From IMG/VR virus record IMGVR_UViG_3300021256_000068: a stretch of DNA of 59,309 nt; one strand, given 5' to 3'. Both the position numbers and the translations under genes were made by a program. This stretch comes from an uncultured virus (IMG/VR IMGVR_UViG_3300021256_000068) (Duplodnaviria > Heunggongvirae > Uroviricota > Caudoviricetes). The notes beneath the pieces were generated by a model that saw only the letters and a program-made list of their open reading frames with translations, did not search any database and had not been told where the DNA came from. Shown piece after piece: positions 636 through 34,528 of the stretch. The first letter of the stretch is position 1. Each line of letters opens with the position of its first letter.

Positions 636-1364
636 ATGGCAAAGTTATCTGCGGAAAAAATTAATGAAGAATTACGCAAAAAAGACTTTGAATTAGTTGA
701 TTGTAGTGGATATGAAAATTTAACAAGTTTTATCACAGTCAAATGTCCTAAAGGTCATATTACTCAAACTAATTTAAAAAGTTTTAGACACGAAAGTTAT
801 CAATGTCCAGAGTGCGATAAAAGTATAGATTTTAGCAATCCTACTGAAGTTCCTGATAAAGGAGGCAAATTTCGTGTAATTGCTTTCGACCAAGCAACTG
901 AACACTTTGGATTGAGTATTTTTGATGATGGAAAATTAATATACTATAAATTATTTGTATTTACTGGCTCTGCTATCAATAGAATGGTAAAGATTAGAAA
1001 AATGATAGATGAACTTGTAATTAAACAATGAAAACCAAATTATATTGTTTTTGAAGATATACAATATCAAAATGGATATATTACTTTCAAAACTCTTGCT
1101 ATGTTATTAGGTGTAGTTCACGAAGTATGTCAAGCTAATGACATTCCTTTTGAATGTGTTAGTCCTAACGTATGACGTAAATATGCGGGAACGTGCGGCA
1201 AAACTAGACAGGAAGAGAAAATGTTGTCGATAGCAGTAGTAAAAGAAAAGTATAATGTATCTGTAACTGATGACGTTGCGGAAGCAATATTGATTGGTAG
1301 ATACGGTGCAGCGCACCATTACGCTGAAGCACCAATATTATTTGGAAAGAAAAAAACCTCTTAA
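636..1364 (+). CDS. Zn-ribbon plus RuvC-like Holliday junction resolvase (2 in-frame TGA=Trp)
   Basis: CPKGH...CPEC; RuvC motifs IAFDQAT, KQ[W]KPNYIVFEDIQ, PNV[W]RK, TDDVAEAILIG are all in frame only with TGA read-through. Confidence 0.85.
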
Positions 1365-1387
1365 TTGAGGTTTTATTTTTTATTTTT
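1350..1387. terminator. Bidirectional intrinsic terminator
   Basis: AAAAAAACCTC-TTAATT-GAGGTTTTATTTTT between convergent genes. Confidence 0.7.
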
Positions 1388-2420
1388 GGATTAACTTGTT
1401 TACTAATTCACTTAATTGATTTATTTGTTCTTGTTGCTTATCAATTATTTCTTGTTGTTCTTGAATAGCCTTCCAAGCAATATACACAAGCTTTGACTCT
1501 TTTACTGTCATATAATTGCCATTTTCGCCGCTTGCCTGTGGATTACATACAAGACCGAAATCACCAGCTGAAACATTTAATGCTTCTTGAGCAATAATAC
1601 CTATTGAATCTGAACCATCTGACTTATATTTGAAATTATAAATTGGAAGAGCTTTGATAAGACCTAATGCAGAGAAAGTAGAGCGAGTAATATTTGTTTT
1701 TGCTCGTTTATCTGATGTCGCATTGAAATATAATGCTTGAACATAGTTATCTACATCAATATATCCATTAGCATTACTGCTGTTTTTTCTAACTCTGATA
1801 TAGTCATGTACATATAATGGACAGTCTGTCAAAATTTTAGTTTGTTCTATACTAGAGCTAGATGAATAGCTACCACTAGTATCGACAAAACAAGCAACTG
1901 AAAAACCTTTATAAACATCTACGTTGTTAGTTTTTCCTTTCAAACCAAACCAAATTGGATTATCATATGCATTAGTATTATTGTAAAGTCTAGATGGACT
2001 AATAAACTGTATACGTGTACCGGTATTGCCGTCGCCAGCTCCTTGAAATTTAATTTGTGTCGCATTTATATTTAAAACAGAACTATTACCTTCTGATGAG
2101 CCTCCTCCTTTTATTTCTAATCCGTTGTTATCATGACCAATATATCCATGATAGTTACCGATAGTACCTACTGGAGTAGATTCTGCATTAAAATATACTT
2201 TATTTAAGAAATAAAAATCATGTTTAATTCTACCATATTCAGCAAGAGATGTAATGAAATATCCTTCATTATGGCTTGTATTTCCATAACTTCATGAAAA
2301 AGTTGGAGTATACATATAAGAATAACCTACAGGGCCTAGAGTTAATGCATCATCTATGCTAATTTTCCAATTGTATCCATTACTTGCTAATCCTTTAATA
2401 TGTTGATAAAAGTATGCCAT
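1380..2420 (-). CDS. Tail fibre/spike with C-terminal intramolecular chaperone (peptidase S74-like)
   Basis: TSDKRAKTNI cleavage motif, GIIAQE and a C-terminal coiled coil; frame extends to the ATG at 2420 through one TGA (2292). Confidence 0.8.
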
Positions 2421-2489
2421 TTATATCACCCATTTTTATTATAATATTTTTTGGAGGAGAAATCAAAAGTGAAATCTCCTCCTTTTATT

Positions 2490-5400
2490 TTAGTTAAGAG
2501 GATTTCTTCTAATCATCTTTGCTAATCTACGAATTAATTTGTCTTGATATTTAATAGTGTTTACAGTTAATTGACAATTGCCGTCATTACGTAAATCTCT
2601 TGAAATATCAGTTATGAATAATAATTGAGATAATGCTTCATAAATATCATCTCTATCATTTGTGTAATCCTCTGCGGAAATCTTGATACCTTCACCAATA
2701 TGAAGTTCAGGTCCACGATAATACTTAGGATTATAAGTATATTTAGGATTTTCAGTTCCGTCACTATTATCTAATGTTTCAACATCTTGAACTAAATCAA
2801 TTAAAGATATTGAATAGCTCTTTTCAGGGTACTTTTGGTCTTCAAAAGCATACTTTGCCATCGTAAGAAGCTCTTCAGATGTAGTTGCTGAGTCATTAGA
2901 ATATGAAGTTTCAAGGAATAAATATGGATATTCTTCATAGAATGAACGCCATAAATCATCTCGTTTTTGTAATAATAACTCATAATTACTTGTACCAGCA
3001 TCTACAAAGTGGGATGTTAAGTAAGTAATTGCAATACCATTTCAACCAGTATAATCAGGTAAATATAAACCAACAGATTGATTTAAGAAAGTTGCCCAAT
3101 TACATCCACCTGTTTGAATTGTATAGTATGAAATTTTATCCGCAATTTTTGTGAAATATAGATAATTAGTAGATACGTTTTGTGTACGCTCTAACATCTT
3201 ATCTACCTCACTTTGTTGTTCAGTAGAAAGTTGATTATATGTGTATAGTTCACTATTTTCTATTTGAGGAGGTACATCACTTCAAGTAATCATGTACTGT
3301 TTATCAGTAGTTTTGATAATCTTAGGTACATATACGGAATTTAATACTACATTTGTGTTTGTTTTAATAGCTACTTCAAAATGATTAACAACTTTATCTT
3401 GTTTAATACGTCATTCATCAGGAACAAATATATCACATAACAAGCTTGCGGCAGAAGCTTCATTTCAATATAATTGAAGATTTGATTCGATTAATGCCGC
3501 ATGTTCACGAAGTGGAATTAATGAGCTATCTCCAAGAGTATATTCATATCAGAAGTCACCATTAGTTGGATTACTAACTAATGTACTACTATGCTCTGTT
3601 ATAGTTACGTCATAATTAAAATCTGTATATGGAGCATACCCATTAATTGAGGTTGCTGAACTCTCAATATTAAATTGATAATTAATTATATCAGGAGTAA
3701 CTGATTGATAATTATACCTGTACATTCTGACATATTGATTAATCTGTTTGTCAAAAGTGTAATAAGTATATATTTGAGGTACTTTATATAATAAGTTGCC
3801 TAATAGTTGATTAATTGTATACACTCTTTCATCTTTACTATTATACCATTCATAAATGTTATCTTGTAAATGATTACGTAAATCATACTGTAATGCCGCA
3901 GGAGTCATTTTAACTTCTTGTTCAATGTAATATAATTTTTCAACTATATGAGGTTTACTTTGTAGTTCACTGATATTAAATTGTTTGCCATATTGGTCTG
4001 TGATTGTTTCAGTAAATATTTGATTTATTTTTGTTGAAATACTGGTACTTAAATCTTCAAGAACGCCATCAATAATATAATATACAGCATATTTCTTATC
4101 AAAATCATCTTCATCTACATCATCATCTTCGTCTATATCTTCAACTGGAAGCTGAAGTACTTGAGTTCTGTTTAAAATAATTCCTTTATTAATAATATCA
4201 TAATCACTGTATTGATTTAATGTTTCACCAAAACTATGTGTATAAAAATCTGGATTAAGTAAATCAATTACCAATAAATTAATATCATCTGATAGATTAG
4301 CAACTTCACTTGCACGTACTCTCGTATATGTAATAGTTTTTCTATATTTATAATTATTGAAATTTGTAGAATGAGCTATTATATTACCAAAAGTATATGC
4401 TAACGAATTAGCGTCTCCATCTTTGATTGGCTTTATTGAATAAAAATATTCTTTTGGAAAGTCACTCATAAAATCATCAAAAAGTTCATTAGAATCTTTT
4501 GCTACTCGGTATCCATTAAAAGATTGGAATATACCCTTATTACCTAAACTACAACTAGAATAATTAGAAGTATTTTCACTTATACGAGTATAAAAATTTT
4601 GATAATTAGTAGACGTAACTAATGTCATTGAAGTGTTTCCATTATAAATTGTATTAAGTGGGAAATTTTTGAAATATGCACTATGTTTTTTACTGCTTCG
4701 ACTTTTATATGGAGAAAATTGAAGATATAAATTCTCAGATAAGTGAGAATTACTACCTTTATATCCACCTAAGACTAAGAAATCATTACGCATAGCTCGT
4801 CTAAATCATGATTTTAAAGCAGAACCTCCAAACATTTCTATAAAGAAACTTGTAATTTCTCAACCTATACTTATATCTGCAAGTTTTCCTCATCCTAAGA
4901 AATTATTATCTGTGTTTTGGTACTCATTATTTGGATTTGGATATTCTTTATAATCACCAACGTCCGTGTCAATCCAATTGACATTATATAAATCAGACAA
5001 TGATTCTTCTGAATAATCTTTTTTAATTTTTAAATTAGAACCTGCTCTATATAAATAATTCTTTAATATGTCTGATGAGTATATTGGTTGATAAAATACA
5101 AAACCATCACAAGTAGAAGAATTGTCAGGTACAAATTTAATAGTATCTGAATTTAATACAGCATTTGCATTTTGTCCTACATATAAAGCCTTATTTCCTA
5201 ATTGCCAAACAAAGCCAGCTGGTCTCGTGTATGTATGACCATTAACAATAATTTTACTATCACTAAATAGATATATTTTATTTCCATCAAAAGCTATTCC
5301 GTCTTCATATTTTTTATTACATACAAGATAATTACTATCTTTTTCATATATCTTACATTGACAAGGATAATAAACGTTATCAACTTTTATTGCTATATGT

Positions 5401-7889
5401 AAATTTAAACTTCCTTCAGATATGCTCTTTTTATCTTCGTCAGTGATAGTAGGTATTCAATTGCTCATATTTAAAATATCATTTAGTCTTAAAAAGAATA
5501 CTTGTCTTAAATATTGTGTATCTTTATTATATTTATCATATTCACCGCACTTATGTAATACATTTTCATAACAATGGACTGTCATATTGTCATAATTATC
5601 ATTAGTAATTAGATAATTTTCTTTATCAAACATGCTGTGTTGAGCATCATTGTTATATAGTCTGATATTGTTATAATCAACTAATTGTCCATTAACAACT
5701 TTAAAGAACTTAGAATGAGTATTATTTACATAATCCATAGTAAGAGTTCGATATTGGTCTTCTTTATTTGGTTCAAAACGATAAATATTATCTGTGTCAC
5801 TATCATTAATAGTAATTGTAACTTCATAATATTTCTTATAAATATCATCAAGAGGAGTTTCAAAATATTGTCTAAAATTATATAAATTTTTCAAACATCT
5901 TTGACGTGCATTTAAAAACTTACGCATATAGTCAGAAGTGGTTTCATATAAATCCATAAAAGTTGAAGTAATCATTGAACCACTTATATCTGTTTGTGAT
6001 GCTGGCGCGGCGCCACTAATATTTGCTTGTAATAGACTTCAACGAGTAATTAAATTATTTGTATCATATGAATTATTACTACCTTTTCTTTTATAGCTAT
6101 CTACAATACTAGATACTTCAGCACCAACCATATCAATATTATTAGTCATTTCTGCTAAATATTTAGTTTGACTATGAACTCGACTATAATATGCGGCTGC
6201 ACTTAATAATATATCTGAATTAATTTTTCTTAAATCGTTATAAATTCTTTGATTTATATCTTTTTGTTGAGGTTTAGATAAAAGTCCTGCCTTAATAAAA
6301 TGCGTATAATCAATCAATTTATTCTCTAATCAAGGAAGTTGATCTGCTATTCTTGCGAAAGTTTCATCTTCATCAGTATATTCAGTTTTAAAGAAAATGT
6401 GAAATTCAAAGTCTTCAATATAATTATCTGGTTGTAATATTTGTTGAAACTCATCATTTTCAACTGTTAAAATTAATGCAGGAAAATTATTTACAGTTCC
6501 AATAGTAGTAGTGAAATTAGAATTATCTGAAGTTGATACTTTTAATTCTCCAATGTTATTTTTAAATGAGAAAGAACTACGCACTTTTTGTGTTTGATAT
6601 ACTTGAATATTATATAAAGAATATAGAATAGAAGATTTTTCTTCCAATCTCATTTTAAAACAAATTTCATTTCCACTATGAGAAATATACACTTTTCCAA
6701 AATCAAAAGTGCTTGTATTGTATTGAGGTATACTATCACTCGAATCTATACTAAATTGAGGTCCATATAATAAATTACTATACATTCCTGGATAATATTC
6801 ACTATAACGCTTCCAATAGGTACTACCAAAATAAGACATAAAGAAAGGACTTACTGTTGGTAGCGCGGTAATTACTTCATCATTACTTAACGTTCTGCTA
6901 TCAATATTTAAAGTAGTTACTAAAGAGTCTGATTTTTCTGATAAGTTAAAGGTTTTTATATTTCTAAAAGGAGAATATTTTAAGCCGCTAACTAAATCTT
7001 TCTTTGACGGCTCAAATCAAAAATAAGTAATTAATGTAATAAAATTATCATTTAATTTTGTAACGCTATTCTTTTCTGGTTCAACAAGAACAGTTGCAGT
7101 ATTTAATACTAAACCTATTTGTTCTCCTAATGAAATTAATGCGCCGTTTGCGGTTGTTGATGAACAACTAAAAGGTATTGTTTCATATAAGTCTGCATTT
7201 TCAGGAGTATTAAGGTAGTTAGTTTTTAAAATTTTTAATACTTTTTTACTAGCACTTTGTTTAAGAGTTGTATTAATAGCAGTGCCATCAGTACATAAAT
7301 ATAATGGAGTTTCTAATTTTAAATATTTATAAGCAATTTTACATTCTTTAACAATTTTATCGACCCAAGAATCAATATTTAATGCGCCGATAAAATTTTT
7401 TGAATTAATGTCATTTTTTATTGTATAGCCATCATTTTGTTTTGCTAATTGATATGAAAAACTATCTTGACAAGTAAAATTATAAACGATATTGTTTTCT
7501 GTAATTGTATAGGTAATATTTTTGACAGTAAAAAGATATATATTATTATATTTATCTTCTAACAATAATTGTCCACCAGATTTAATTTTTGATGCAAAAG
7601 GATTATCCTTCCAAGTATCATCATCTAATATCATCTTATCAAGAGAAAAAGTAAGATCTTTTTGTCCTTGTTGATGGATATTTAATTTCTCATTGTAAGT
7701 ATATGTTTTAGTGTAAATATTTGTAGTTCCTGACTTTAATTGCGGAGCTAAGTTATTCTCTCTTTCGTATTGAATTAATTGTTCATCTACATTATTACCA
7801 TAAAATTCAGAAATTACATTCTTTATATATCTATTTGGATTGTCTTTATCATAAGCTTTTGTTAATAAGCTTAATTTAAAATATGCCAT
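2490..7889 (-). CDS. Large tail tip/central tail protein, about 1800 aa under code 4
   Basis: Six supplied ORFs (7017, 6330, 6039, 5457, 3549, 2490) share one frame and the first five end in TGA; located downstream of the tape measure and Dit-like genes. Confidence 0.75.
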
Positions 7890-7900
7890 AAAATCACCTT

Positions 7901-9253
7901 CTAACTAAAAATTACTTCAAACTTATCCTCTATTTGTGGATGACTAGTACTTGGTTTATTAAAACGAACTTGATATTCACTAGTCTTACTAGGTCTTTCA
8001 TATAAAACAGTGTCTGCAATTAATTCTTCATATTCATTATTGTTATTTACGTATACTGTTTGAGGATAAATACTTGTTGCGCCACATCAATGTTGATAAT
8101 CCTTACTATCACCATGAATTGGTTGTAATGATTGTGGATCGCTGCCATATCTTACATTAATATTAATATAATCAAATAAAGTCGTAGTGTCAAAATTATT
8201 ATTACTATATTTTATTTTATAAATACCATCATAAAAATATCTTGGTGTTGACTCAACTACTTGTATATTATACTGCAATCCAAAATCTAATTCATTAGAT
8301 AGATGATAAGTATATATTAATGCAGCTTTCCCACTTGCATCGATACCTGTACTTATTGTCCAAGTTATATATTGCGCTAGTGCCGCTTCAAAAAGTATGT
8401 AATGATCTAAAACTGAGGGGCTTAAAATATTAGATATGTCATAAGAATCTTTTTTATAAATAGTAGCACCAATATCTAGTGAAGAAGTATAATCAGGTCC
8501 ATACCAAAAAACACGGTCTGATGTATTTTTATATCCTCATCTATATTGTAATTTATTGATATATAAAATATTTTTCATTGGCACACTTATTGAAAAAGTA
8601 AATTGTTTATCATATGAATCTTGTTCAGATGGTGGATCTATATGTGAATCATATGGATAGACTCAATTAGGACAAATATTATATTCTGTTTTATCTATTA
8701 TATTTAAATGACAACTGAAATTATTTTTAACATAATAATATCCTCATCCAGATTGTCATCTTTCTATTTGATTACCTCTGGTAGTATAAATTATAATTTC
8801 ATCACATTTTGGTATAGATATGGTAACATATCCATAATAAAGTTCATCATCATCAGGTTTAAATTCTACAAACTCATCTTGTGGATTAGATAATATGTTA
8901 TCAGTAGTAACAAAATTTGAATAATTTCCACCTGATTTAAACTCAATTGTCTGAATAATTGTATTGGATTTTTTAATTATTATACTTGATATAAAAATCT
9001 CATCAATACCATATGTAGTGAGTATTAATTGAGTTGGATATAATTCATCTTCTAATGATGTTTTATTAATTAAAACATTTGGATCTGTGTTTGTGTAGTA
9101 TCCACTACCATCTTCTAATAATCTTCATTCTGGATTATAATAATGTAAATATTCATATAATGAATTTGTTTGATTTCGTAATTGATTAACATACTCTTTC
9201 TTATATGCTTGAACTCAGTCCTTATTTTGCTTAGAAATATTAAAACTTTTCAT
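7901..9253 (-). CDS. Putative tail/baseplate protein (multiple TGA=Trp)
   Basis: Frame from ATG 9253 to TAG 7901 spot-checked; contains ORF 8087-8278; TGA in contexts such as R[W]QSG[W]G. Confidence 0.6.
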
Positions 9254-9254
9254 A

Positions 9255-9983
9255 TTATCTCACCCTCATATAGACGTTTTGACTATGAATAACTGTAGTT
9301 ACTGTAATACTATAAGCAATAGAAGTAGAATTATCTTCATTTGTAACTGTCGTAGAAGTATATGTTCAACTATAATCTGGATAAATTTCCTCATATGCAT
9401 TATTTTCAAAAATAAAAAATTTAACAAGAGGTTTTAAAAGTCCAGTATTGGTAGCTATTCCCTTAAAAGTAGAAGTATATGGACCAGATCCACTAAAGGC
9501 ATCAGTACATCTATCAATCGAATAACCTTGTTGCTGTTCTGCGTCCATAGTAACAGTTTCTGTCCATTCTTCACTAGGAGTGTTACTTTGATAAGAATAC
9601 GTTACTTTCAACATATCTTCATCATCGTCATAAGTAATAGAAGGTTTATAAATACCTTTATTTTCTGCGTCTATCCATATTAATTCACCATCCGCTTTTC
9701 GATATGCAATATCTCCTCTATAGTGGTTTTCCGCTCCATTATTTAAAACGTTTGCATTAACAATTGCGGCTTCACCTATATTTAATAAAGCTAATTTTGA
9801 AGTCAAATCATTATCATTTAATAATACCTGAGTTACATTATACACATCCCAGAAAGAAACATTTCTAGTTATATCGTTTAATTTTTTATTAATTTCTGTT
9901 AATGCTGTTTTAATATCACTCGCTCTTTGATCGTCAAGACTTCAAGTACTAAAAAATTCAGTTTCATTATGATTTAGGTTCAT
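9255..9983 (-). CDS. Putative tail protein (TGA=Trp)
   Basis: GAGGTG RBS; extends ORF 9366-9845 at both ends through TGA. Confidence 0.65.
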
Positions 9984-9993
9984 ATTATCACCT

Positions 9994-11457
9994 CTATACT
10001 AAAATTGCTTTTGCTCGTCCATAAGTTTGTACTGTTGATGGGTCTATTGTTTTAGGAAAAGTAAAAACGAATGGGGTTCAATTTGCAGGAGCCGGATCGG
10101 CAAATAGCTCAAAACTAGCATTATTTATTGAATATTCAACGTGATTTTGTTGATAAACAACAATAGAAACACTATCCGCACTAGATACTTTAAAAGAGAA
10201 TTGACCATTATTTTGTAATTGAACATCATTAGATCTCTCATTTAATGTACCAGTAGAGGTAAACTGAGGTAAATCTATATAATTTCCATTCTCTTTAAAT
10301 AAATACTCTACTCCATTGATAATAACTTTTTGAACATAGGCACTGCCATCACCTTGTGGTTGTCTTATTTTTATTATGGTTGGTTCCATAATAAAATCAA
10401 AATTAGTTAGTTTTCATACAAAATATACTTTTTTTATATCTTCATTTTTATCAATCTTCATTTTTGTTGTAGACATATTTTTAATTAAATATTCACCATA
10501 AGTATTAGTTAATAATAAATTTAATACTTTGTAATCACTTTCTCCATATTGCATAAATATTAAACCAGAAACTGAATCATATTTAATAGAAAAAGATTTA
10601 TCAATGTCTTGAAAACTTTGTGGCTGTGCAGTTGCATTACTATTAACTTCAGTATTTTGTCAATTAGTAGTAATCTTATTAAATTCTATATGACATAATA
10701 AAGCCATGTCATCATTAGTTAATTGATGAACATCTTTATCTTTATTCGTAATATATAAATCTAGTTGACATTCATGCTCATCAGAAATCGGAGTAACACG
10801 AATTTCTCCTACAACACTAAAAGGCTTTTCTGATTTTGATAACATTCAATTGTCAATAACTGCTTCTGTTTTTACCATATTTATTGTAACATTATCTATA
10901 GGTGTAATGGTATACGGAGTAGTGTTCTTAGGCACAGTTCAAACATATTGTCTTTGAGCAAGTGCACATTGTTCACCTTGAACTTCAAAAGTAATATTAT
11001 TTTCAACCATATATAAATCATTATTATCACTATCTACACCAATAATAGTTTTAACTGCTTCTTTCATACCTGTTGTTTTTGCTAAATAACATAACTTATC
11101 ATCATAATCAAAAGCAAGATAATCGATTTCATATGGACCTAACGCAGCAATTAAACTACGATATTGTGCCGCGGTCACACCATAAGTGCAAATACTAAAA
11201 CTTACTTGCATTCTTGTAAACTTAACACCAGTTAAATTACCCATAGCATGGTCATATTGAGGTGAACTATACTCGTTAGAGAAGGAAGGCCCATTAACAA
11301 ATTTAAGGGCACTTCCGTTATTTGTAATAAACGTATGATATGTCTCTCACATATCTTCTCCACGTCAATAAAACTTTGCATATTTATCAAGTCTTCGTCC
11401 AAGATATTCAATTTCTTTTTCGATATTATTTCTTGTTGAGTAACTACTTGAACTCAT
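9994..11457 (-). CDS. Putative distal tail (Dit-like) protein (about 7 TGA=Trp)
   Basis: ORFs 10939, 10660 and 10078 fuse in one frame; immediately follows the tape measure gene; GAGGTG RBS. Confidence 0.7.
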
Positions 11458-11468
11458 TTTATCACCTC

Positions 11469-14400
11469 TTACATTGAAGCATTGATACCATTTTGTTGAA
11501 GCGCAAGTTTTATAGCCTCATAAATATTACGTCCTTGAGCTTCATTTCCACTTAATTCAATTACTTGATCGCCGATATTTAAAACTAAATTACCAGCGTT
11601 ATTTACTGAAGTAGAAATATTGCTTCAATCGATATCAGAAACTTGACTACCAAAAGTAGATTGAATTTCATTCAAATACAATTGAGCTTCGTTTGCAGTT
11701 TTTCCCGCAAAAGACTCAGTAGATAATAAACTTGCAACTAAGTCAGTACCGCTTGTTCCTTTTAACATATTTAAAATTTCTCTATTGTTTGCTAATAACT
11801 CATCAAATTTTTCACTAATTTCATCTATACTGTCATCAATACTTTGAATTACTGCCTCTTGCGCACGCTCACGTATGGTTTGTAAACGTTCTTTTTCAAG
11901 TTCAGCAAGAGAATTTTGTAATTCTTCAGTTTGTGCTTTCGCTGTAGCATTTGTCGAACCAGCAAGTTTTGTTAAATTAGCAACAAATAATTCGGCTTTT
12001 TCTTCGTAATCTTCATCTTCAGCACTTTGGTTAACTGCTTCAAAATACTTTTGATATGCATCTTTTCTTTCTTCAAGAGATTTTTGTAAGGCATCTTGTT
12101 CTTTCTGAAGAAGTTCTTTATATGCTTCGATACGTTTATTTTCTTGCTCTACTAAAGTTTCTAAATCAATACTTAAAAAATCATCAGATTGTAATTGTTT
12201 TAATCTTTCATTTAAATATTGAATTAAAGCTTCATTTCTTGCAGCGCCAATTTTGGCTTCTTCGAAGGCTAATTCTGCCGCTATTTCTTTGATTTCATTT
12301 TCTCTATTTTGAGTTAATGTCGTATTACTTGCTAATGCATTTCTTATTTGATCATAGTCTTTAGATTTGAAAGCCTGTAATAAAACTGCTCCACTTTGTC
12401 CACTAAACATATCTTGATGTTCGCTTAAGAAAGTGCTTTGTTCAGTTAAACTCATAGAATCCCATTTTTGTGCTGCATCATAAATTGATGTAACTGAACT
12501 TTTTAATTTATCAACATTTTGACCAATATTTTGAACACCGATTTGAACTGCATTTGCAACTTGATTTAAAATCGCAGTATAAATTTTTTCATAATCTTCC
12601 GCATTAACATCAGCTAAGAAATCTCCAAAAGCCATCTTCATAGCTTCTGCTACATCCATATTAGTCTCTGATAAAGCTGGAAGTAAACGATTAATTAATC
12701 TATCTTGATATTGATCTTCATTCATTATCTCTGAAAAATTTGCTGATAATTTTTCATCTTTTAATATTCTTGCAATTTTACTGTAACCAGTGTATAAGTC
12801 ATTAATTTCTTGATTAGTGATTTTTAAATCTTCAACTAATTCTAGTGTTTGATTACTTCAGTCTGCGAATACATTAAATTCTGAATATGCTTTTTCAATA
12901 GCATTCCATACATCAGGCATTCCTGATAATTCTTTCTTTAATTTTCTAAAAGCTTCTGTTCTATCTTTTAATGAAGCTCCATCATCTTGTAATATATCAG
13001 ACGCTACTGAGCCATCATCAAATGTAATATTACCTAATTGAGCTAAAATTTTTCGCATCTCTGTTAAATTACCAAGAAGGTTTTTTAATTGAGAATCACT
13101 ACTAGATTCAATAATTTTTTCTAATATAACTTGTCGTGCAGAGGCTTCTTCAGATGATAAATCTAATTCATCTAACGCTTGATATGCAGTACGTTTTACT
13201 GATGAAGTAGCTTGTAACTTATACATTTTTCCATTATTACTACTATTCCAATCTGCTCGTTTTAAATCTTCTACTAGCTTTTTTTCGTCCTCTGCTAATT
13301 TTTTATTGACTTCTGTTTGATATTCTTGTAAGAATTTTAATTTTTCCGCATCTCCAAGTTGATCGTAGAATTCTTGTTCTGACATACCTAATCCTTGGAT
13401 AAGGTTTTCATCTTTTTCACCAGATAATTTATCTCCAACTTGTGATAATGTTTCAGACAATTTTTCTGCATCTTCTTTAGATTTAATTAACTTTTTATCT
13501 AAATCATTAACTGCAGTTACAGCAGTTTCTATTGCTTCTGAACGTTTAGTTAATGTATAAATCTCATTACTTAATTCTTTAACATGGTCAGCAGTTTTTT
13601 CGTCTGCGCTCTTAAAAGCACCTGCTGCGTTCGCAATTGCAAAAGCAACTCCAGTCGCTAATGCTAATGCGGCAACAATACCAGCTGCAATTGCAAGACC
13701 AGGAATACCACCTTCAGCACCAGCACCAAAGATTTTTGCGAAAATACCAGGAGTTTCTTCTGCATCATCTTTCATCTTTTGTCTATGGTTCTTTCTTGCA
13801 ACGGCACCCATTACTCGCATTACTCCAACAACAGAAGTAAAGATACCTAATAACATTGAAGCTCCAGGAACCATTTGCATGATACTTGCGGCCATATTCA
13901 TACTTAAACGAGATTGTTCTCCTTGGACTTTTAAAATCTCATTATCAATAGTCAACATATCATCTTTGTATTCTTTTTTGATTGCTTCTGTTTCAAGTTC
14001 AGCTTCATTCTCTGCAGTAGTTATCTCTAACTTTGCTTGAGCGATTTCAGCTTCCGCAATTTCATTGCTTGTCTTATGCTCTTTTAATTTCTTTTGAATT
14101 GCCTCAATTTTTGCTTCTGCAGCCTGAATTTTTGCCTTTTTCTTTTCTTGAACTGTTTGTAATGCAACTTCCTTCGAAATTGCTCTTTGTGTTTTATATT
14201 GTTCAAGAGATTGAACTTTTTGTTTTAATTGCTCTTTTAAAATTAATTTTTGCATATTATGTTCTTGTATTTTATTTGTTAATACAGAAACACCATAAGA
14301 TGCAATTATTGTTAATATAGCAACCATACCTCAAGTGTTTGATATAATTTGATTTACAGTATCTAATAATCCTGTAGCTACATCAACTAAAAATACAATG

Positions 14401-20126: not shown

Positions 20127-20127
20127 T

Positions 20128-20961: not shown

Positions 20962-21463
20962 TAATATCACCTACCGCTGGACGCTTTGATGTATTAACTC
21001 TGCTATAATGCTCTTCTAACTCTCTTGCATCAGTACGATAAGTGCTATATTGTTTAATCCACTTATCTATTGCATTAGCTTTTGAGAAAGTCTTAATATT
21101 TGAGTCAGTATAAATGTCTTCAAAATTATTTGAATTAGACATTAATCTTTCACACCAATATACTTTCATTCATGCGATGATAATCGATACCTCAGCATAT
21201 TTAACATCATCTGAGTTGAAATATGCATGAGGTACTCCATCTTGATCATCATCAGTAACTTCTACGGTTTCACCGTTGTCGTCAGTTTTCGCATAATAAG
21301 TGGTGTAGTCTAATGAGGTATGAGGAAACTTAAAAGCCGCGATCGCACGACAAGCTAAATGATAGCATTCTTCATCTAGCAAATCCTTTGTAATTACGCC
21401 ATAATATGAACCTCTTATTGTATCCCTAAAAGCGGGATATAAACAATCATCTCATTTTTGCAT
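20954..21463 (-). CDS. Putative head-tail adaptor (2 TGA=Trp)
   Basis: MQK[W]DD...IIA[W]MKVYW; two supplied ORFs abut at a single TGA. Confidence 0.65.
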
Positions 21464-21490
21464 ACATTACACCTCTTTACTTATTTTATT

Positions 21491-23188: not shown

Positions 23189-23201
23189 TCTTTCTCACCT
23201 C

Positions 23202-23786: not shown

Positions 23787-23808
23787 TCTTATAACCTCAT
23801 ATATCTTT

Positions 23809-25335: not shown

Positions 25336-25366
25336 TGTTTACCTCTAGTTCTACTGTTCTTGATTA

Positions 25367-26968
25367 CTATTCCTTAGTTTGCTTTTTATCATCTGATGGC
25401 TCAATTCCAGATGCTTTATCAGCCTGGTCGGAATTCTTATCGCTTAATGACTTATTATCACCGCTATCATCACTTTCCTCATTTCCGCTTTGAGTATATG
25501 ATGTTTGCATTGGTTTTAAATCATTAAGTTGTAAGTAGTCTTCAAGAATAAGTTGATCTTGAATATTCTTTTGTTTAGTTCCTGATGCTATAAAGTAATC
25601 AAGCTTATTTACTCCAAGAGTAGCATTATCTTTATATATCTTTATATCATCATTATAAGTATAGTTTGAAATTGGTAAAATTTCAATATCGGCTTGATAG
25701 TTTTTTCAGTCTCATCCATTATTGACAGCAATAATATAGAAATTAGTTATAGCTTCAACATATTTATATATAACACTTTTATCTCTACGTATTGTCATTT
25801 TTAATGCTTCAACACTATCAGAAGTGAAAATTGTGCTATTTAAACCAGCATTATTGAATATATCTCTATATGCTTTTGCGGTTACATCACTATCTGAGCT
25901 ATCTGTATCACTAATTTTTTCAACGTGAACTTCACCCCAAGTGGTAATTAAACGCGCTTTATCATCAACCTCAATCTTACTGCGCAATGAACGGTGTAAA
26001 TCTTGAACTTCATCAACAGTGAAAATTAAATCTGTTTGGAAGTGAGGCATTGTTTGAACAACTAGATACTTTAATAAATTGCCGTTACGCTCTAATTCAT
26101 TATCTTGATATTGTTCATAATTACCAATAGAACCAAGAGTATATAATAAGTATGGGATACCTTCTGGATTTAATAAAATCGCGGTTGAAAAACGAGGGTC
26201 TAAAGTTTGCCATAACTCATTTTCAGGGTTCTCCTTGTATACTTTATATAATGCTAAAAATTCTTCAGAGAAAGAGGTTTTAATATACTCATAAAGTTCT
26301 TTTTCGTTTGCATATAATCCATCGAAGTAGTCCATTCTAAATTGAATAATCGCAGTGCCATATTGTGTTTGAGCAATAGTCTTACAATAATGAGGTGGTA
26401 GTAATAAAGTACTTACACAAAATCTCTCTTTATCAAAAACTGTTGTAAGATAAACACTACCTTGAGTATATAGGTTAGTTAGAATTTCTGGATATATAGT
26501 TTCAATACCAATACCATCTACAACTTCAAGCATTTCTCTATAAGTTAAGTCATATTTTTTATTAACTGCATCAGCATTTAACTTTTTAACTCTACTATTA
26601 GTCATCAACTTGTGCGGAACAACTTTATATCTATAAATAAAGAAGTTTGCAAAGTAATCAATAATAGATTTGTAAATAGGGTTAGTCATATAAAGTCTAG
26701 TTGATGCTTCAACTAATACTTGCTTTTGAGTACTAGCAATACCAGAATTGATTGCCTTTTGTAAAATATTTCTAACTTCTTCAGCCTTTTTTAATTTTAA
26801 ATTTTTATAACTATAAGGTTGATTAAATCTATTACCTCTTGTTGTTTCATCATCATAAAAGTTTTTTAAATTATTACGACTTACTTTTTTAGTTGAGAAG
26901 GTTGTAGCATCTGCAACTGCAACTACTTCTTCTTCTTTTTGTTCTACTTTTTTGTTATTTTTACTCAT
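25367..26968 (-). CDS. Portal protein (2 TGA=Trp)
   Basis: About 533 aa after reading through TGA 25712 and 25706; C-terminal PMQTSYTQSG; lies between terminase and protease. Confidence 0.8.
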
Positions 26969-26986
26969 TTTAAATAACACCTCTTT

Positions 26987-28798
26987 CTAATTGAAAAATG
27001 CAATTTTACGGCGCTTACCGTTATTCTTAGCTCTGTTTTTATAAAACTCTAATTCAATATGTTGATTTACTCCTCATACCATATATTCTGCCATTGAGAA
27101 GTAGTCTTTTTGTATTTTATCATTACGTCTAACAACTTTAACTTTATTTGATAAGTTATCAGAAGTGGAAGCAATATCTAGATTTTTCAACTCCATTTCC
27201 ATTTTATCCATTACTTTAAATGGTTGAAGATATGTAAGTTGCTTTTTTTGAGACATTTGCATAAAAGTTTTATTGCGGCCATATAGTGGAACTGCTTCTT
27301 GCGAACGAATTGGGAATGTTAATGCTCCAGTACTCATACGAGAGAAGAAGAACCAGTGTATATGTTCAGTATTGCCGCTACCTGCTTTAATTTCATAGCA
27401 AATAGTAGCTTCTTTTTCTCATCTATGTAATTCTTTTTCTACATCAGATGGAGGATTAATAATACCATAACCTCTATACATTTCTCCTGTTGCTTCATCT
27501 TTTGTCTCTTTATTTAACCAGTCACGGATTGCCGCACCGATACCGTTAGCATCGTATATAAGTAATTTTGCATGATAAGTCATAACTGTACGCTTTAATA
27601 TATTTGCAACTGCTAAATAATCACTAATAGATATATCAAACAAATTGACAAATTTATATGTAAAGAAATGGTCTTTTGGAATAACTTTTGCTACACCAAC
27701 TGCCGTATCTGCTTTACCATCTTTCGCCATATCGGCACATACTGCATAGAAACAATCATTTTCTTCTTGTGCAGGAGATAAATTATATTCTAATTCAACT
27801 TTCTTTATTTGTCTTAAAGTTGAAATTAATGATGCCGAGAAAGCCGCACCTGCTGGCGCATCAGACCAAACAGATTCATATTCACGTTCAAAAGAGTCTT
27901 TACTAAATGATGGAGAGTTGATAACGTCTTCGATTTGTTTACGAGATGTTAAACCATTCTTTAGCGGAATACGATATGTAGCTCCGATTACGAAATATTT
28001 ATCTGGTTCAATAACTGAACGACATAAAATTTCTATCATCTTTTGATACGCGAATGTACCTTGATAACCAGCAGTAGTAACATAAGTTTGTTGTGACTGA
28101 GGTTCATAAGGATTTATTAAACCATTACTCATTGTACGAGGACGGTTTAACATTGGGATTAATACTTCGTTAACTTTTATTGGGTCTTGCTCGATAATTT
28201 CCTCAAAAATTAGTGACTCTTTACGCAAACCACGGACACCACCGATTTGTAATGATGAACCATTACGGAAGTTAAATTCTACATAGTCGGTACCCATTTT
28301 ATATGCATCTAGGACTTTACCACCCTTTTTAATCTTCTGCATTTCATTAGCTAAGAAGGGGAATTTTATCCACAAGTCATTAACAATCTTTTGCTTTGCG
28401 ATTTCAGCCGCTTGCTTATTTGTACCTGCTGTTACCGCAGTATTGTGACGAGGAATAAACATACATTTTAAATATTTATCTAAGTCCGCAAGGAACGATT
28501 TTGAGAAACCACGCGAACAATAAACATAACTATTGATACCACGCGCCATTACACGTAATACAATACGTTGAATTACAAATAGATGGAATGATGACTTTTT
28601 AGGAATAATCAAATCTACAAACATATCAGGATATGCAACGAATAAATTTAATACTTCAACTAATTCATCAATATGCGCATCAATACGCTCTTTTGTAATT
28701 GCACCAGTATGATCATTTTCGTCTTCGGACATTAAGTCCATCAACTCATAGATTTCGTCTTCAATATCGAAATCTAAATCATTATAAGAAGAAAACAT
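26987..28798 (-). CDS. Terminase large subunit (2 TGA=Trp)
   Basis: Walker A SRGFSKS, Walker B LIFEE, nuclease ADMA, YDANGIG and KDYFSMAEYMV[W]; ORFs fuse at TGA 27419 and 27074. Confidence 0.92.
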
Positions 28799-28801
28799 AA
28801 A

Positions 28802-29812
28802 CTATTCCTCCTTATTAAAATTAATTGCTAACGCCTCTTCATCTGATTCTGTATCTACATTAATTTCAGTATTTGCTTTAACCAAATCTTCTAATGTAAC
28901 ATCTTGTGTTACTTCATCAGAGAATGTTTGCTCTGTTTGCGCTTTCTTTTGTTCTATCATTTCTTGAAGTTGTGAAGTTAAACCTGTAGCTTCAAGTATT
29001 GTACGACGGTTAGTCGCTTGTATATCTTTGATAGCAACATCAATTTCATCTCTATCATAATTATCATAGAATCTTAATTTATAACCCTTATCTTCAATGT
29101 ATTGATATAATTCTGATAGAGTAGTAATATCATCTGTTTTTGTATTCGCAATCATATCTTCTAGGTCCGCTTGCTTTGCAAGAGTTGCCCAAGTATTACC
29201 AAAGTCTTTAATTGCTTTTGCGTCTTCGGCTTCAATTGCTTTATCCATTTCAATTTGCACTTTACAAAGCGAACGGATCGCCGCCTTTTGAATTGGGTTA
29301 ATTACGGCATTGGCTTTTAAAGTTTTAGTGTAAATATCATCAAGACGGTATAATTCTTCAAAAGAATATTGAGGACCCCATCTTAAGTGACCTCTCTCTA
29401 TATAAGATTGCTTAATAGGTTCAATACGTTTTAAAATATCATATAATGAGCGGTTCTTTTCCCACTCTTTATTTGTTAATGCTCATAAATCCGCAGTAGT
29501 AGATTTGTAATATAGATTATTCTTTTCTTCATCGTATTTAGTGAACATATATTCAGCATAAATTGCGAAAGTTTCTTCTTTATATTCTTTACTTATTTCA
29601 ATCCACTTATTTGGGTCGAAAGGTAAATTATATGTTCTGCAGAAGAAATCCGCGTGTTGAATATTGTCATATTTTAATTGTACATTAATACAAGAGAAAC
29701 AAATAGTATTGCCGCTTAACGGATTATTTGAATACATTACCTTTGTTTTCTTACCACAAGAAGGACATATTTTTGTGGGAAAACTAAAAATTTCTGCTTT
29801 TGATATTTCCAT
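28802..29812 (-). CDS. Putative terminase small subunit (Zn finger; TGA=Trp)
   Basis: CPSC...CFSC; two ORFs fuse at TGA 29483; immediately upstream of the large subunit. Confidence 0.65.
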
Positions 29813-30086
29813 TATATCACTTCCTTCTTAAAAATAGTATAGTCGAGTAAAAATAAAATATCAAAAATAGAAAAATTATTTGACAATCTCTTGAAAAAGT
29901 TTTATGATAATATTATAAGGGAGATTATTTGCTTAATGAATTAAGTATAAAATTTTAAACCTATGAAAAAGTGAATATTCAAAAGAGGAAAAATTATTGA
30001 CAAGACTATTGACAAAGACTATAATAATAATGTAGGGAATAAAGATAAATGAATAAGTATGTTTATATAGATTAGGAGTGATATTT

Positions 30087-31115
30087 GTGACTACTGCTGA
30101 AATAATACTTTTAACGTGCTTAATTGCAATATGCGGATTAGTACTATTTTTAATAATTAACTGAATTTTTACGATAAAAGAAAATAAAGAATTGAAACAA
30201 GAGAATAAACGAGATAGTGGCCACATTAGAGAATTGTCTTCTCTTTTAAAATCTGAAAAAGAAATTAGTAAGGCACATTTTGATAAGACAATACAGCTTT
30301 CATTAGAAAAGGCGGAACTACAATCGCGCGTAGAGAAGTTTGATATTAGTCAAGAGTGAAAAGAACAACATCAAAAAGAAATGGCTGTTATTGATAAGGC
30401 TATACAAGATAAAATGTTGGAATTGCAAACTCTTGCTTCTGCTTGTGATACTACTAAGAAAGAAGTTGAAGAACTTAAATTAAATAAAGAACAGCTTCAA
30501 CATAAAGAATTGCAAGTTAAGTCAGATATCGAAAATTTAGAAGTATTATTACAACAAAAACAAGCGGCGTGAAGTGCAGTTGATAGCTTCGAAAAATGCG
30601 GTTTTGGTGATGAATTACCATATATTGATTATGAAGAATATTTTTCTAAAAATAACTTCGAAGTTGTATTAAAATTACTTGATGATTGTATTGAAGTGGC
30701 GCCGCAATTTAAGTCCGAGCTTAGAAAAATAGAGTGGAATTTATGTTATTTGCCTTATAAAAAGAGCTTTATTAAAGATTTTAGCCGCAGCGGTATTTAT
30801 ATGCTTGAAGTAAAAAGTAAATATGAGAATGAAGTTTTAAGAGAACTTGGATTAAAACGTATTAATGATAATGGCTCTATTGTTTATATCGGTCAGGCGA
30901 TTAATATTTATGATAGATGAACTACACATATTAAGAAAATGCTTGGAATTGAGGCTAGTGGTGGAGAAAAATTGTATAAGTTTAAGCCACTGATGTTTAA
31001 ATGGAAAGTAATTGAGTGATGCGATAGTAGTGAATTAAATGAAAGAGAAAAATTTTGGATTGATAGTTTTAAGAGTGATGAATTTGGATTAAATAGTAAG
31101 GGTGGAAATAAATAA
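30087..31115 (+). CDS. Membrane-anchored coiled-coil protein with C-terminal GIY-YIG nuclease domain (5 TGA=Trp)
   Basis: AGGAG RBS; hydrophobic N-terminus; SGIYML...VYIGQAINIYDR[W]TTH...LNEREKFWI. Confidence 0.75.
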
Positions 31116-31147
31116 AGACTAGGATTAACCTAGTCTTTTTTCTTTTT
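31114..31147. terminator. Bidirectional intrinsic terminator
   Basis: AAAGACTAGG-ATTAA-CCTAGTCTTTTT between convergent genes. Confidence 0.75.
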
Positions 31148-32704: not shown

Positions 32705-32778
32705 TTGCTTGTTCACTTCCTTTAGTATTAGTATAACAAAAGAAAAAAAGAATAGCAAAAATTGCTATTCTAAATTGT

Positions 32779-33285
32779 TTATTCTTGGATTGATTCTTGT
32801 TCTTGTTTAATTAATAGTTTTGAAAGGTCAAAACTCTGGATGATTGAATGACCACTTCCTCTAATTATACCAACGAAAATCTCTCCATCTCCTGCGTAAA
32901 TCTCTTCAGCACTAATCTCTGTGGCATATTCAGTAATATGGTCAGACCAATTAGTAAAATGATCTCCATCAATAGAGAAGATTGTTTTTAATCCAATTTG
33001 TAAACTATAAGTGGTACCTGTATATGATAAATAAACTATTGAACCAACATGTTCATTGCCACTACCATCTATTGCATAACCGTCTCCTATAGAACCTTCA
33101 CCACTTATAAAACCAGCTAATCTTGCTAATTCAACAGGGTCAATTTTATAAGCTGTACCAGAAGTATCTACGACAATTTCTCCGCTATCACCGCCACCAG
33201 CATTCTCAGGCCAATTAGTTACGTCACTAGCGTCAGCACCATTATCTATAAATTCATCTAGCCATTGATTTAATTTCTTACTCAT
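32779..33285 (-). CDS. Hypothetical protein sharing an N-terminal module with its neighbour
   Basis: GAGGTG RBS; first 32 aa closely match those of 33305-34528. Confidence 0.7.
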   Translation of the reverse strand: MSKKLNQWLDEFIDNGADASDVTNWPENAGGGDSGEIVVDTSGTAYKIDPVELARLAGFISGEGSIGDGYAIDGSGNEHVGSIVYLSYTGTTYSLQIGLKTIFSIDGDHFTNWSDHITEYATEISAEEIYAGDGEIFVGIIRGSGHSIIQSFDLSKLLIKQEQESIQE

Positions 33286-33304
33286 TTATTTCACCTCGTT
33301 AATA

Positions 33305-34528
33305 TTACATTACTCCATTCCAATAAATAAATTTCTGATTTGTATTGTCCCAATCAAGACCAGGATTTCCTAAACGTCCTTTAGGATAGAAATCAAAATA
33401 GTAAGAATTTCCATCTTTTTGAGCGGCAGAAATTGTAGATATTTCTTCATGTCCGTCTCTGACAATAATACATTTAATCTGAGTATTATTTGGATCCGCA
33501 TTGTACATTTCGATTATCTCATCAAATGTCTTATTACAAGATAAGACTTCATATTGAACTTGTCCTTGTCCAGGAACATCTATATTACCGCCAATTTCAA
33601 ATTCAACTCTTTCAGGTTCATTTTCTAAAAAGACATCTACAGTATAATCTTCAAATAATAATCTTAAACCGATAGGATCTGGTGATCCTTCATTAAAAAC
33701 AGTTTGTATTTCATTTAAAATACGAATTGCAACTACAGAAGATATCTCTTCGTCTTTAAATATTTTTCTTAATCTAACATCTCCTCCATTTAATATAGAA
33801 TTAACAATAGATACAGCATCATATTCTGGATCGTCTAAATAAATATATTTTTCATTTCCACTTTCAGGTACATCAATTACTATTGCTCCATTAGTCTTTT
33901 GCCATCATTCAGTAACTACTGTCTCGTAACCAATTTTTTCATGTTCTAAAAGACCTGCTAATGCCCCTAAACCAATACCGCTAGGTTGAGTAAATTCATT
34001 AATAATCTCTTGTGTCAATGTAATACTTAAAGGTATTGTTAAATCTCCCTCTATAATTTCCATTTGACCGTTATTATAAATAGCTCTTCCTATTTCTTCT
34101 CCTGAATTAGATGCTATTACTATCTGAAATGGATTACTACTATCGTTGTCATAACCTACTAATTGGTTTCCTGAAGAAATAGTAGGTACATTGTCTATAG
34201 TAACACTTCCTGCTTTAGTTATCCAACGTTGAATATCATAAAGGGTACCATAAGCATTATCTATATCTTCAGGCTTGTATATAAAATTAAATGTTTCTCC
34301 CGCTTTTATTTGTTTATAAACAGGAACTACCTTTTCTTGATGCATAAAGGTATATATATCGCCATTAGGTAGTAAATAAAATTTTCCTATATCTCCTTTT
34401 TCTGGAAGTTTATTAACTGGAGTTAATCCTCCACCTCCACCTGCGTTTTCTGGCCAACCAGTAACGTCACTAGGATTTGCACCATTCTCTACGAACTCAT
34501 CAAGCCATTTATTCAATGTTTTCGCCAT
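33305..34528 (-). CDS. Hypothetical protein, 407 aa (1 TGA=Trp)
   Basis: ORFs 33905 and 33305 fuse in frame through TGA 33905. Confidence 0.7.

Follow-up and report, generated by a model that had tools for sequence, protein, structure and literature searches.

In the Agate phages of the animal gut, TGA is read as Trp in structural genes, replication genes remain in the standard code, and a suppressor tRNA is present; one lineage of the group, of ~127 kb, comes from the gut of cattle and pigs, and the clade has a mean genome size of 154 ± 27 kb (Borges et al., 10.1101/2021.08.26.457843). The same account describes the Jade phages, of ~200 kb, which carry a code-change operon of tRNA-UCA, TrpRS and RF1, and whose tRNA/TrpRS pair has been assayed (PMC12636597). 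Phages of the phAss-1 group (~136 kb, human gut) read TAG as Gln with suppressor tRNAs and no synthetase (PMC10607447). Native code-4 bacteria, found among the Mycoplasmatales (PMC4014445) and Eggerthellaceae (PMC13462651), read UGA as Trp through tRNA-Trp(UCA), have lost RF2 and have no UGA stops.

The DNA considered here is a stretch of 59,309 nucleotides from an uncultured virus (IMG/VR record IMGVR_UViG_3300021256_000068), referred to below as the window. As far as the strategy of Agate-type recoded phages is set out by Borges et al. (10.1101/2021.08.26.457843), the pattern found is that strategy, and the present phage is a further example: coding density rises under code 4, TGA aligns with Trp, and TGA is concentrated in structural and late genes, with one exception in the early arm. 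The explanation as a whole, to which we give a probability of about 0.8, is that the window represents roughly one half of the genome of a tailed phage of the ruminant gut, ~110-130 kb in size and distant kin of the large Bacillota siphophages, with a standard-code host in which a phage UCA tRNA turns on the TGA-bearing genes.

Read in code 4, open reading frames of at least 70 aa take up 0.85 of the window; the share falls to 0.66 in code 11 and is 0.73 when TAG is left open instead. Over the first 35 kb, taken in 5-kb bins, code 4 gives a coverage of 0.86-1.0 and code 11 one of 0.53-0.94. Eight relatives (G001-G008) were used in place of the full genome, five of them complete (113-130 kb) and two, G001 and G008, fragments. 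G001 is collinear with the window (terminase 93% identity), and a 132 kb contig is known for one terminase homologue of 88% identity; among INPHARED phages, terminase identity never exceeded 36%. A further contig, L168, shares 2,474 bases with the window at 97% nucleotide identity and continues beyond it with nine ORFs holding 30 TGG and one stop-like TGA, followed by 13 tRNAs. One metagenome scan returned three contigs, the longest of which runs ~7.5 kb beyond the window and stops inside a tRNA array. At least half of the words of 50000-59309 are present in four sequencing runs; with the possible source of the window set aside, three runs from three studies are left, labelled sheep gut (two) or gut (one); run labels and word sharing thus place the phage in the animal gut, as in the Agate clade. 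RNA runs holding 0.17-0.29 of the same words were rejected as evidence of expression.

In 27 hand-picked genes between 636 and 35434, Trp is spelled by 53 TGA and 61 TGG codons. In-frame TGA occurs in 16 of these genes and is absent from the other 11, and the stops of the 27 are TAA (18 genes) or TAG (nine), never TGA. A preliminary description of the sequence had held that the terminase, portal, tape measure, tail, RuvC and GIY-YIG genes need TGA as Trp; in-frame TGA was counted in each and the labels are backed by family matches or, for the terminase, by similarity to annotated proteins, and the three motifs that it quoted (KQWKP, DRWTTH and EYMVWG) are TGA-Trp sites, namely RuvC W132, GIY-YIG W281 and terminase W575. 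The RuvC-like resolvase (636..1364, plus strand; phrog_159, E 1e-21) has two TGA and no TGG, and both of its TGA columns hold TGA or TGG in all eight relatives. On the minus strand there follow a tail fibre with an S74 chaperone domain (1380..2420; tail-fibre phrog families; one TGA, three TGG) and a 1799-aa tail-region protein, labelled by position (2490..7889; 12 TGA, eight TGG), whose longest piece under code 11 is only 418 aa. Three further minus-strand tail-region genes of 450, 242 and 487 aa (7901..11457), without a family match in Pfam or phrog, carry seven, two and seven TGA, respectively. The tape measure gene (11469..16277, minus; PF10145, E 3e-32) has four TGA and five TGG.

The remainder of this block lies largely on the same strand. 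A virion structural gene (17857..18858, minus; phrog_2729) has no TGA and probably encodes the major tail protein, a label for which no annotated sequence match was found. Four head-tail region genes (18877..21463, minus) have three, zero, one and two TGA. The major capsid protein (22094..23188, minus; no TGA) had no named match by sequence and was recognized by the fold of its predicted model, which is of low confidence (pLDDT 48) and resembles capsid/encapsulin folds (best Z 7.5, rmsd 4.5, 210 aligned). The portal gene (25367..26980, minus; phrog_2739, E 6e-45) has two TGA and two TGG. The terminase large subunit (26987..28798, minus), identified by its similarity to annotated large subunits (tblastn, 36% at best), has TGA at codons 460 and 575, and the conserved gene before it (28802..29812, minus; phrog_3314) has one TGA and four TGG. 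On the plus strand, a GIY-YIG nuclease with a hydrophobic N-terminus (30078..31115; PF01541; five TGA, three TGG) is preceded by two promoter-like sites of host type (TTGACA..TAnnAT). A 407-aa gene (33305..34528, minus; one TGA, six TGG) lies at the right end of the range singled out in the preliminary description.

Alignment with homologues indicates which residue these codons specify. At 39 TGA sites of the window, the eight relatives contribute 84 TGA, 45 TGG, 14 Phe, 8 Tyr and 17 other residues; none of the 168 aligned cells is Gly or Cys and two are Ser, and TGG occurs in at least one relative at 20 of the 39 columns. The columns are thus occupied mostly by TGA, TGG or aromatic residues, and not by Gly or residues at random. 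In the terminase, compared with 120 homologues, W575 is Trp in 119, and W460 is Trp in 19 and Tyr in 101. In a control in which most homologues are non-phage, three TGA sites of the pyruvate formate-lyase (PFL) of G001 are Trp in 116 of 116. These alignments show, at the level of sequence, that TGA is Trp in these genes. Decoding of TGA as Gly (the code 25 assignment), Ser, Cys or Sec, or decay of the genes into pseudogenes, might be suspected from the labelling of the relatives' UCA tRNA as 'SeC' by ARAGORN, and from the long variable arm and G73 that form the signature of SerRS recognition, as given in the available part of PMC5389517. This reading is largely refuted by the aligned residues and by frames open for up to 1,799 codons in which TGA is the sole interruption, and we consider it highly improbable. 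In addition, 13 of 13 phage UCA tRNAs, not necessarily of the type found in the relatives, inserted Trp in E. coli extract (PMC12636597). The base at +4 after sense TGA resembles that after TGG, with no context bias. Reassignment of CGG was also considered and dropped: it does not occur among 14,784 codons, but the AGA:AGG ratio predicts about one occurrence at most places of this size, so that no signal remains.

The early arm (35952..59309, plus strand, 30 ORFs) is spelled differently. Its 30 hand-picked ORFs contain 37 TGG and no internal TGA, a zero that is partly circular because the ORFs were called under code 11, and the 29 with a stop end in TAA (20), TAG (seven) or TGA (two). In the worst case, with both TGA stops taken as Trp and the gene at 50835-51488 added, late genes have 53 TGA to 61 TGG versus six to 39 in early genes (Fisher p = 1e-4). 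Of 36 promoter-like sites of host type in the window, 33 fall in this arm, as a raw count without a shuffle control. The two TGA stops had been pointed out previously, and both were counted: that of a 93-aa gene (40406..40408, plus) is backed by the orthologue in G001, which is of equal length and has TAG at that position, and the probable stop at 48155..48157 (plus) is ambiguous, with TAA three codons downstream. The arm also encodes the window's only tRNAs, tRNA-Glu(TTC) and tRNA-Met(CAT) (53371..53678, plus), neither of which reads UGA, and the start of a phage sigma-70-type factor (59068..59309, plus; PF00140) that is cut by the window end. The factor is complete and TGA-free in L168 (97% identical); as a query against viral contigs, the fragment found just four loci, all distant.

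The earlier claim of more than 30 early Trp codons, all TGG, therefore stood for the 30 ORFs and failed for one further gene with its own promoter-like site, at 50835..51488 (plus, 217 aa), which has four TGA and two TGG. Trp occupies all four TGA sites in four homologues of 66-95% identity, which marks it as a real gene, and the C-terminal part of its model (pLDDT 40) resembles winged helices (best Z 8.7, rmsd 2.2, 63 aligned). As promoter-like sites of host type precede both this gene and the GIY-YIG gene, which nevertheless hold four to five TGA, and 11 of 27 late genes are TGA-free, the TGA/TGG split runs gene by gene and follows no early/late boundary. At most one TGA occurs in distant homologues of the 50835 gene, and none in two GIY-YIG orthologues, with counts across the orthologues of both genes ranging from 0 to 8. 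Placement of TGA thus differs between lineages and, given the tRNA, may largely reflect neutral drift.

The core replication genes (DNA polymerase III alpha, helicase, primase and topoisomerase) are located outside the window and were counted in the relatives. Across aligned segments of G001-G008 they contain one TGA and 353 TGG, compared with 240 TGA and 191 TGG in late orthologues; those of G001 have no TGA and 41 TGG, and TGA in that genome also occurs in non-virion genes (PFL, NrdG and an exonuclease). The preliminary description had proposed that the host uses code 11 and that the phage switches code during infection. This proposal is well supported as an inference from the single TGA in 354 replication-gene Trp codons, the TGA stop aligned with TAG and the UCA tRNA of the relatives described below. 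A native code-4 host (Mycoplasmatales-like or a code-4 member of the Eggerthellaceae), with TGA merely tracking expression level, would suit the AT-rich genome (32% GC), the avoidance of TGA by the most abundant virion proteins, the presence of the same type of tRNA on bacterial-looking contigs of two RF2-less bins and the lack of Amidase_2, GH25, Amidase_3 and CHAP, four common lysin families not found in the five complete relatives. Such a host is improbable, as the replication genes are not high-expression genes and nonetheless shun TGA across eight genomes, one TGA is used as a stop, the phages supply their own UCA tRNA, and the named neighbours of PFL belong to an order whose sequenced members retain RF2.

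A standard-code host is thus preferred, and there are weak hints that it may be a wall-less member of the Acholeplasmatales. Among the best 120 matches of the G001 PFL, only two are named to taxon, Anaeroplasmataceae and Acholeplasmatales (80%), and Acholeplasma laidlawii and phytoplasmas retain RF2, according to the part of PMC4014445 consulted. Bins that hold related contigs have RF2; one of these, a Bacilli bin with a related phage contig, also has MurA and is therefore a poor fit to a wall-less host. Host assignment by binning was rejected, since the titles are contradictory (Bacilli, Oscillospiraceae and Treponema for related contigs, Methanobrevibacter for a terminase homologue) and were treated as mis-binning.

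That the window has neither a TCA suppressor tRNA nor a release factor, as first described, was upheld by every search. ARAGORN found only the Glu and Met tRNAs, as did Rfam in 35400-59309 and a model of the relatives' UCA tRNA run with filters off over 59,010 of 59,309 bases; ARAGORN at a lowered threshold with introns made seven extra calls, none with anticodon TCA, and a Pfam scan of 41 window proteins found no release factor. Beyond the window, the UCA tRNA is present in all six relatives whose records cover the region (G002, G003, G005, G006 and G007, and intron-split in G004). It is absent from the fragments G001 and G008 and from L168, which ends before its expected place. The closest relatives with the UCA tRNA share 64-68% terminase identity with the present phage. 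No RF-1-family protein or class Ic synthetase (TrpRS) was found in any of the eight relatives, five of them complete.

The extra arm of this UCA tRNA copies the Trp (CCA) anticodon loop. A scan for UCA tRNAs that took no account of the variable arm gave 50 matches in viral contigs, of which six have a short variable region and two long ones (L075 and L111) were discarded on inspection because they do not resemble a tRNA. The CCA loop is present in 41 of the 42 well-formed long-arm tRNAs left (33 of 34 distinct), versus 8% of shuffled arms, L097 being one real long-arm UCA tRNA without it, and all four pairs of the CCA-arm helix covary. Of 46 matches in genome contigs, 38 were dropped on a stem test and seven of the remaining eight have the loop. 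The two-arm tRNA is the sole UCA match in two RF2-less, code-4 Eggerthellaceae-type bins, and for this reason a phage tRNA of this type may have seeded a bacterial code change, an idea that we regard as unlikely. A literature search, with most subscription journals outside its reach, found no paper on a two-anticodon suppressor tRNA. We think that the CCA hairpin is a candidate handle for host TrpRS, in which case no phage synthetase or release factor would be needed.

In nine genomes the capsid gene has no TGA and 21 TGG, its neighbour none and 12, and the putative major tail protein, counted over whole ORFs, one and ten. Avoidance of the codon in the highest-copy virion proteins would follow if suppression of UGA is incomplete, as is probable. 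It is proposed that genes needed immediately (the early arm, sigma factor and DNA replication) are spelled for a host machinery with RF2. A phage tRNA with a UCA anticodon, presumably encoded outside the window, would accumulate later, be charged with Trp by host TrpRS and compete with RF2, and the TGA-bearing virion, packaging, nuclease and accessory genes would thereby become translatable. A narrower joint reading is held only tentatively: that a single two-anticodon tRNA switches the code, UCA decoding UGA and the conserved CCA arm, in the variable-arm position, letting unmodified host TrpRS charge it, that the capsid gene lacks TGA because suppression is partial, and that the host is a wall-less standard-code mollicute.

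The same biochemistry could also operate without regulation. Once a UCA tRNA is present, AT pressure would drift TGG to TGA wherever partial read-through is tolerated, and TGA would be purged only from genes required before the tRNA has built up and from very high-copy proteins, as a constraint and not a timer. The free interchange of TGA and TGG at the same columns among relatives, the 0-8 range noted above and the avoidance in the capsid gene, consistent with a cost of incomplete suppression, agree with such drift, as does a late TGA share of only 46% of Trp codons, against 74-98% A-ending codons in the other two-fold families. Drift leaves unexplained the gain of the tRNA and its retention in six of six relatives, and lysis-linked genes are biased to the recoded codon in the phages of Borges et al. 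(10.1101/2021.08.26.457843), as far as that account shows. We regard drift as a real possibility, somewhat short of an even chance; it and the switch by a phage tRNA can both hold.

The window adds one more case of late-gene stop-codon recoding, and such genomes need annotation under code 4. The account of Borges et al. does not settle how the code is altered by phages that encode neither a synthetase nor a release factor, and the relatives' two-arm tRNA is a concrete, cheaply testable candidate. It may also offer a design rule for suppressor tRNAs in which identity is uncoupled from the decoding anticodon. Avoidance of TGA in capsid genes would serve as a sequence-level sign of incomplete suppression. 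If the weak host hints hold, a recoded phage infecting a wall-less mollicute with RF2 would adjoin lineages in which the same code change was made permanent.

Among known systems, native code-4 bacteria differ in that TGA is here kept out of replication genes and still terminates at least one gene, and code 25 or selenocysteine recoding in that Gly and Cys are absent from the 168 aligned cells. The phAss-1 group, as far as described, has related head genes (terminase 30%, capsid 28%) and likewise a suppressor tRNA without a synthetase, but it reads TAG as Gln in the human gut, whereas TGA is Trp here. As in the Jade phages, a phage tRNA (here in relatives) would read UGA as Trp; unlike them, the relatives have neither TrpRS nor RF1. 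The likeness to Agate, by features and not by placement in its terminase clade, extends to TGA as Trp in structural genes, standard-code replication genes and a suppressor tRNA (both in relatives), gut origin and a recoded intron endonuclease; the complete relatives measure 113-130 kb, beside ~127 kb for the Agate lineage of cattle and pigs. The Agate paper, in its accessible part, has a lysis cassette, whereas four common lysin families were searched for without a match in the five complete relatives, and does not describe the tRNA structure or the avoidance of TGA in the capsid gene (Borges et al., 10.1101/2021.08.26.457843).

The window is a tailed-phage fragment with a GC content of 31.7% over 59,309 bases. 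A morphogenesis block of terminase, portal, capsid, tape measure and tail genes occupies the minus strand at 1.4-35.4 kb, and an early arm of short plus-strand genes with strong ribosome-binding sites runs from 35.9 kb to a cut sigma factor at the end. The terminase shows at most 36% identity with cultured phages, the matches being large phages that infect Geobacillus, Alicyclobacillus, Bacillus and Enterococcus. Among eight related phage genomes (G001-G008), the 79-kb G001 is collinear with the window (terminase 93% identical) and extends it leftwards by 25.7 kb, with genes for nucleotide metabolism and replication; rightwards, about 7.5 kb comes from contig L168 (97% identity across 2,474 bases). 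Five complete relatives measure 113-130 kb, with terminase identities of 64-68%. By sequence-word content, the right arm was found in public gut, sheep-gut and goat-gut metagenome runs. On the minus strand, 31130-32758 encodes a TGA-free fusion of 542 aa, in which an N-terminus judged glycosyltransferase-like by eye precedes UDP-glucose dehydrogenase domains and which was not found in G001-G008; at 32779-34528 (-), two adjacent genes share near-identical first 30 N-terminal residues.

In the comparison that the preliminary description had proposed, code 4 raised ORF coverage from 0.66 (code 11) to 0.85, compared with 0.73 when TAG was opened. The 27 hand-picked genes at 636-35434 encode Trp by 53 TGA and 61 TGG codons; sense TGA is required by 16 of them, and all end in TAA or TAG. 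Thirty early ORFs contain 37 TGG and no TGA, and two of them end in TGA, as had been described. The claimed late-gene concentration of TGA was borne out (53/61 versus 0/37). The claim that early genes use TGG throughout held for these ORFs and had overlooked one early-arm gene, 50835-51488, with four TGA and two TGG. Even if this gene and both TGA stops are counted as sense, the contrast persists (53/61 versus 6/39, p = 1e-4). Trp is kept at all four of its TGA sites in four homologues (66-95%), and a low-confidence model suggests a winged helix in the C-terminal part of its product. A 72-aa code-11 frame (51258-51476, plus strand) starts with an ATG right after the third TGA, spans most of the winged helix and stops at the fourth, with no clear ribosome-binding site; the gene might conceivably yield a short product early and a long one late.

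The residue read at TGA was assessed by alignment. Of 120 terminase homologues, 119 have W at the TGA-encoded W575; at W460, likewise encoded by TGA, 19 have W and 101 have Y. Since these homologues may themselves be code-4 translations, codons were compared directly with G001-G008. At 39 window TGA sites, 168 cells comprised 84 TGA, 45 TGG, 14 F, 8 Y, 6 L and 11 others, with no Gly or Cys; TGG occurred in at least one relative at 20 of the 39 columns. The three TGA sites of the G001 pyruvate formate-lyase (PFL) are W in all 116 homologues. On these alignments TGA encodes Trp, in agreement with the preliminary description; the Gly columns that it had named as contrary evidence were absent.

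A native code-4 host, in which TGA use merely follows expression level, is an unlikely explanation. In aligned segments of the eight relatives, core replication genes contain 1 TGA and 353 TGG, compared with 240 TGA and 191 TGG in late orthologues. The core set comprises topoisomerase subunits, an SSB-like protein, AAA, helicase, primase, DHH nuclease and polymerase III alpha, some labels coming from position or motifs. These genes are not high-expression, and therefore expression level alone fails to explain their avoidance of TGA. Moreover, the TGA at 40408 aligns with TAG in an equal-length G001 orthologue. Nine L168 ORFs from the sigma gene on hold 30 TGG and a lone TGA, which precedes a promoter-like site and reads best as a stop. 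The code split runs gene by gene. Host-type promoter-like sites number 36 on the plus strand and 0 on the minus strand (a raw count without shuffle control), and two genes behind such sites, the GIY-YIG gene (30078) and 50835, carry 4-5 TGA. Distant 50835 homologues contain 0-1 TGA and GIY-YIG orthologues 0-8; TGA-bearing genes of G001 include PFL, NrdG and an exonuclease. Overall, the observation is real, and its interpretation as a code switch during infection of a code-11 host is most likely right (probability about 0.8).

Over nine genomes, the capsid gene (assigned from the fold match of a low-confidence model) has 0 TGA and 21 TGG, its neighbour 0 and 12, and the putative major tail gene 1 and 10, counts from homologous columns that are not fully independent. 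This avoidance probably reflects a cost of incomplete suppression against RF2.

The only tRNAs in the window are tRNA-Glu and tRNA-Met, and no UCA tRNA was found there, as already described, or among 13 further tRNAs up to the end of L168. The proposed search of the remaining genome, run on the relatives, yielded a candidate suppressor tRNA and no release factor: a UCA tRNA of 95-97 nt with G73, labelled SeC by ARAGORN, is present in G002, G003, G005, G006 and G007, and RF-family proteins or class Ic synthetases were found in 0 of 8 relatives (controls positive in 10 and 14 of 14). In G004 (about 7726-8390, minus strand) a group I-like intron, containing an ORF that itself has a TGA, interrupts the same tRNA at the UCA loop; G001 and G008 are fragments without the tRNA-bearing region. 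The G002 gene lies about 18 kb beyond the sigma gene, i.e. past the end of the window. In this tRNA the long variable arm folds into a hairpin whose 7-nt loop is centred on CCA and resembles the anticodon loop of tRNA-Trp. When viral contigs were scanned with a pattern that ignored the variable arm, 50 loci matched, 44 of them long-armed, of which two were dropped as not tRNA-like; the CCA loop occurred in 41 of the remaining 42 (33 of 34 distinct), versus 8% of shuffled arms. Among 29 aligned tRNAs, 24 of 25 pairs changed on both sides, including 4/4 of the extra helix, although the structure was derived from the same alignment and kinship inflates the counts. G73 and a CCA anticodon are among the Trp identity elements listed in PMC9976931. 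In the simplest model, host TrpRS would charge this two-arm tRNA via the spare CCA arm, and the UCA arm would decode.

Complete relatives G003, G004 and G006 also encode tmRNA, along with arrays of 30 to 36 tRNA genes. A 100-nt tRNA-like gene unseen by ARAGORN (L168:8914-9013, plus strand) has a long extra arm, and its unusual anticodon loop contains a GUU triplet. Two bacterial bins of 1.1 Mb each, titled Phoenicibacter sp. and Coriobacteriia, lack RF2 and have TGA inside RF1; their only UCA pattern match is a two-arm tRNA among bacterial-looking genes (L121:3001-3080; L142:3001-3080). A phage origin of this bacterial suppressor is possible. Code-4 Eggerthellaceae have been described in a report whose main text lacks the words 'phage' and 'variable' (PMC13462651).

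Plus-strand 52650-56790, above all 54075-56790, comprises about 4 kb nearly devoid of credible ORFs, with GC up to 41% (versus 32%) and several strong promoter-like sites ahead. It is rich in hairpins and includes tRNA T-arm-like pieces, its Rfam matches are the two tRNAs only, relatives match in short pieces only and L168 lacks it; one or more large non-coding RNAs may be encoded here. At 37300-46920, the gaps between early genes contain 50 copies (29 plus, 21 minus) of a GC-rich 8-mer, set out in spaced arrays, many of them inverted, next to tandem promoter-like sites. G001 has 48 copies and G002-G008 have 0-2. The arrays are a candidate protein-binding or origin/genome-end element.

Several weak hints point to a possible wall-less, Acholeplasmatales-like host. 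Among the best 120 matches of the G001 PFL, the only taxon-named ones are Anaeroplasmataceae and an Acholeplasmatales bacterium (80%). Four lysin families were not found in the five complete relatives, and a class 3 lipase, present in the window (34673-35434, minus strand), G001 and G003, is a candidate membrane-lytic enzyme for this phage family. RF2 is retained in A. laidlawii and phytoplasmas (PMC4014445). Against a wall-less host, a Bacilli bin holding a related contig has MurA besides RF2, and other bins with related contigs belong to unrelated taxa. The joint proposal, that one two-anticodon tRNA switches the code with partial suppression in a wall-less, standard-code mollicute, is tentative and somewhat short of an even chance.

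Late-gene TGA recoding has already been published, and the window appears to behave like the Agate phages of that report (10.1101/2021.08.26.457843). In E. coli extract, 9 of 31 phage UCA tRNAs were strongly active, and all 13 analysed gave Trp (PMC12636597). The two-arm tRNA of the relatives has an extra arm, a feature that goes undescribed in the accessible portion of that report, and a literature search, covering some sources in part, found no publication on a two-anticodon suppressor tRNA. The gain lies beyond the window, in the relatives' two-arm tRNA, the avoidance of TGA in the capsid gene and the hint of a host.
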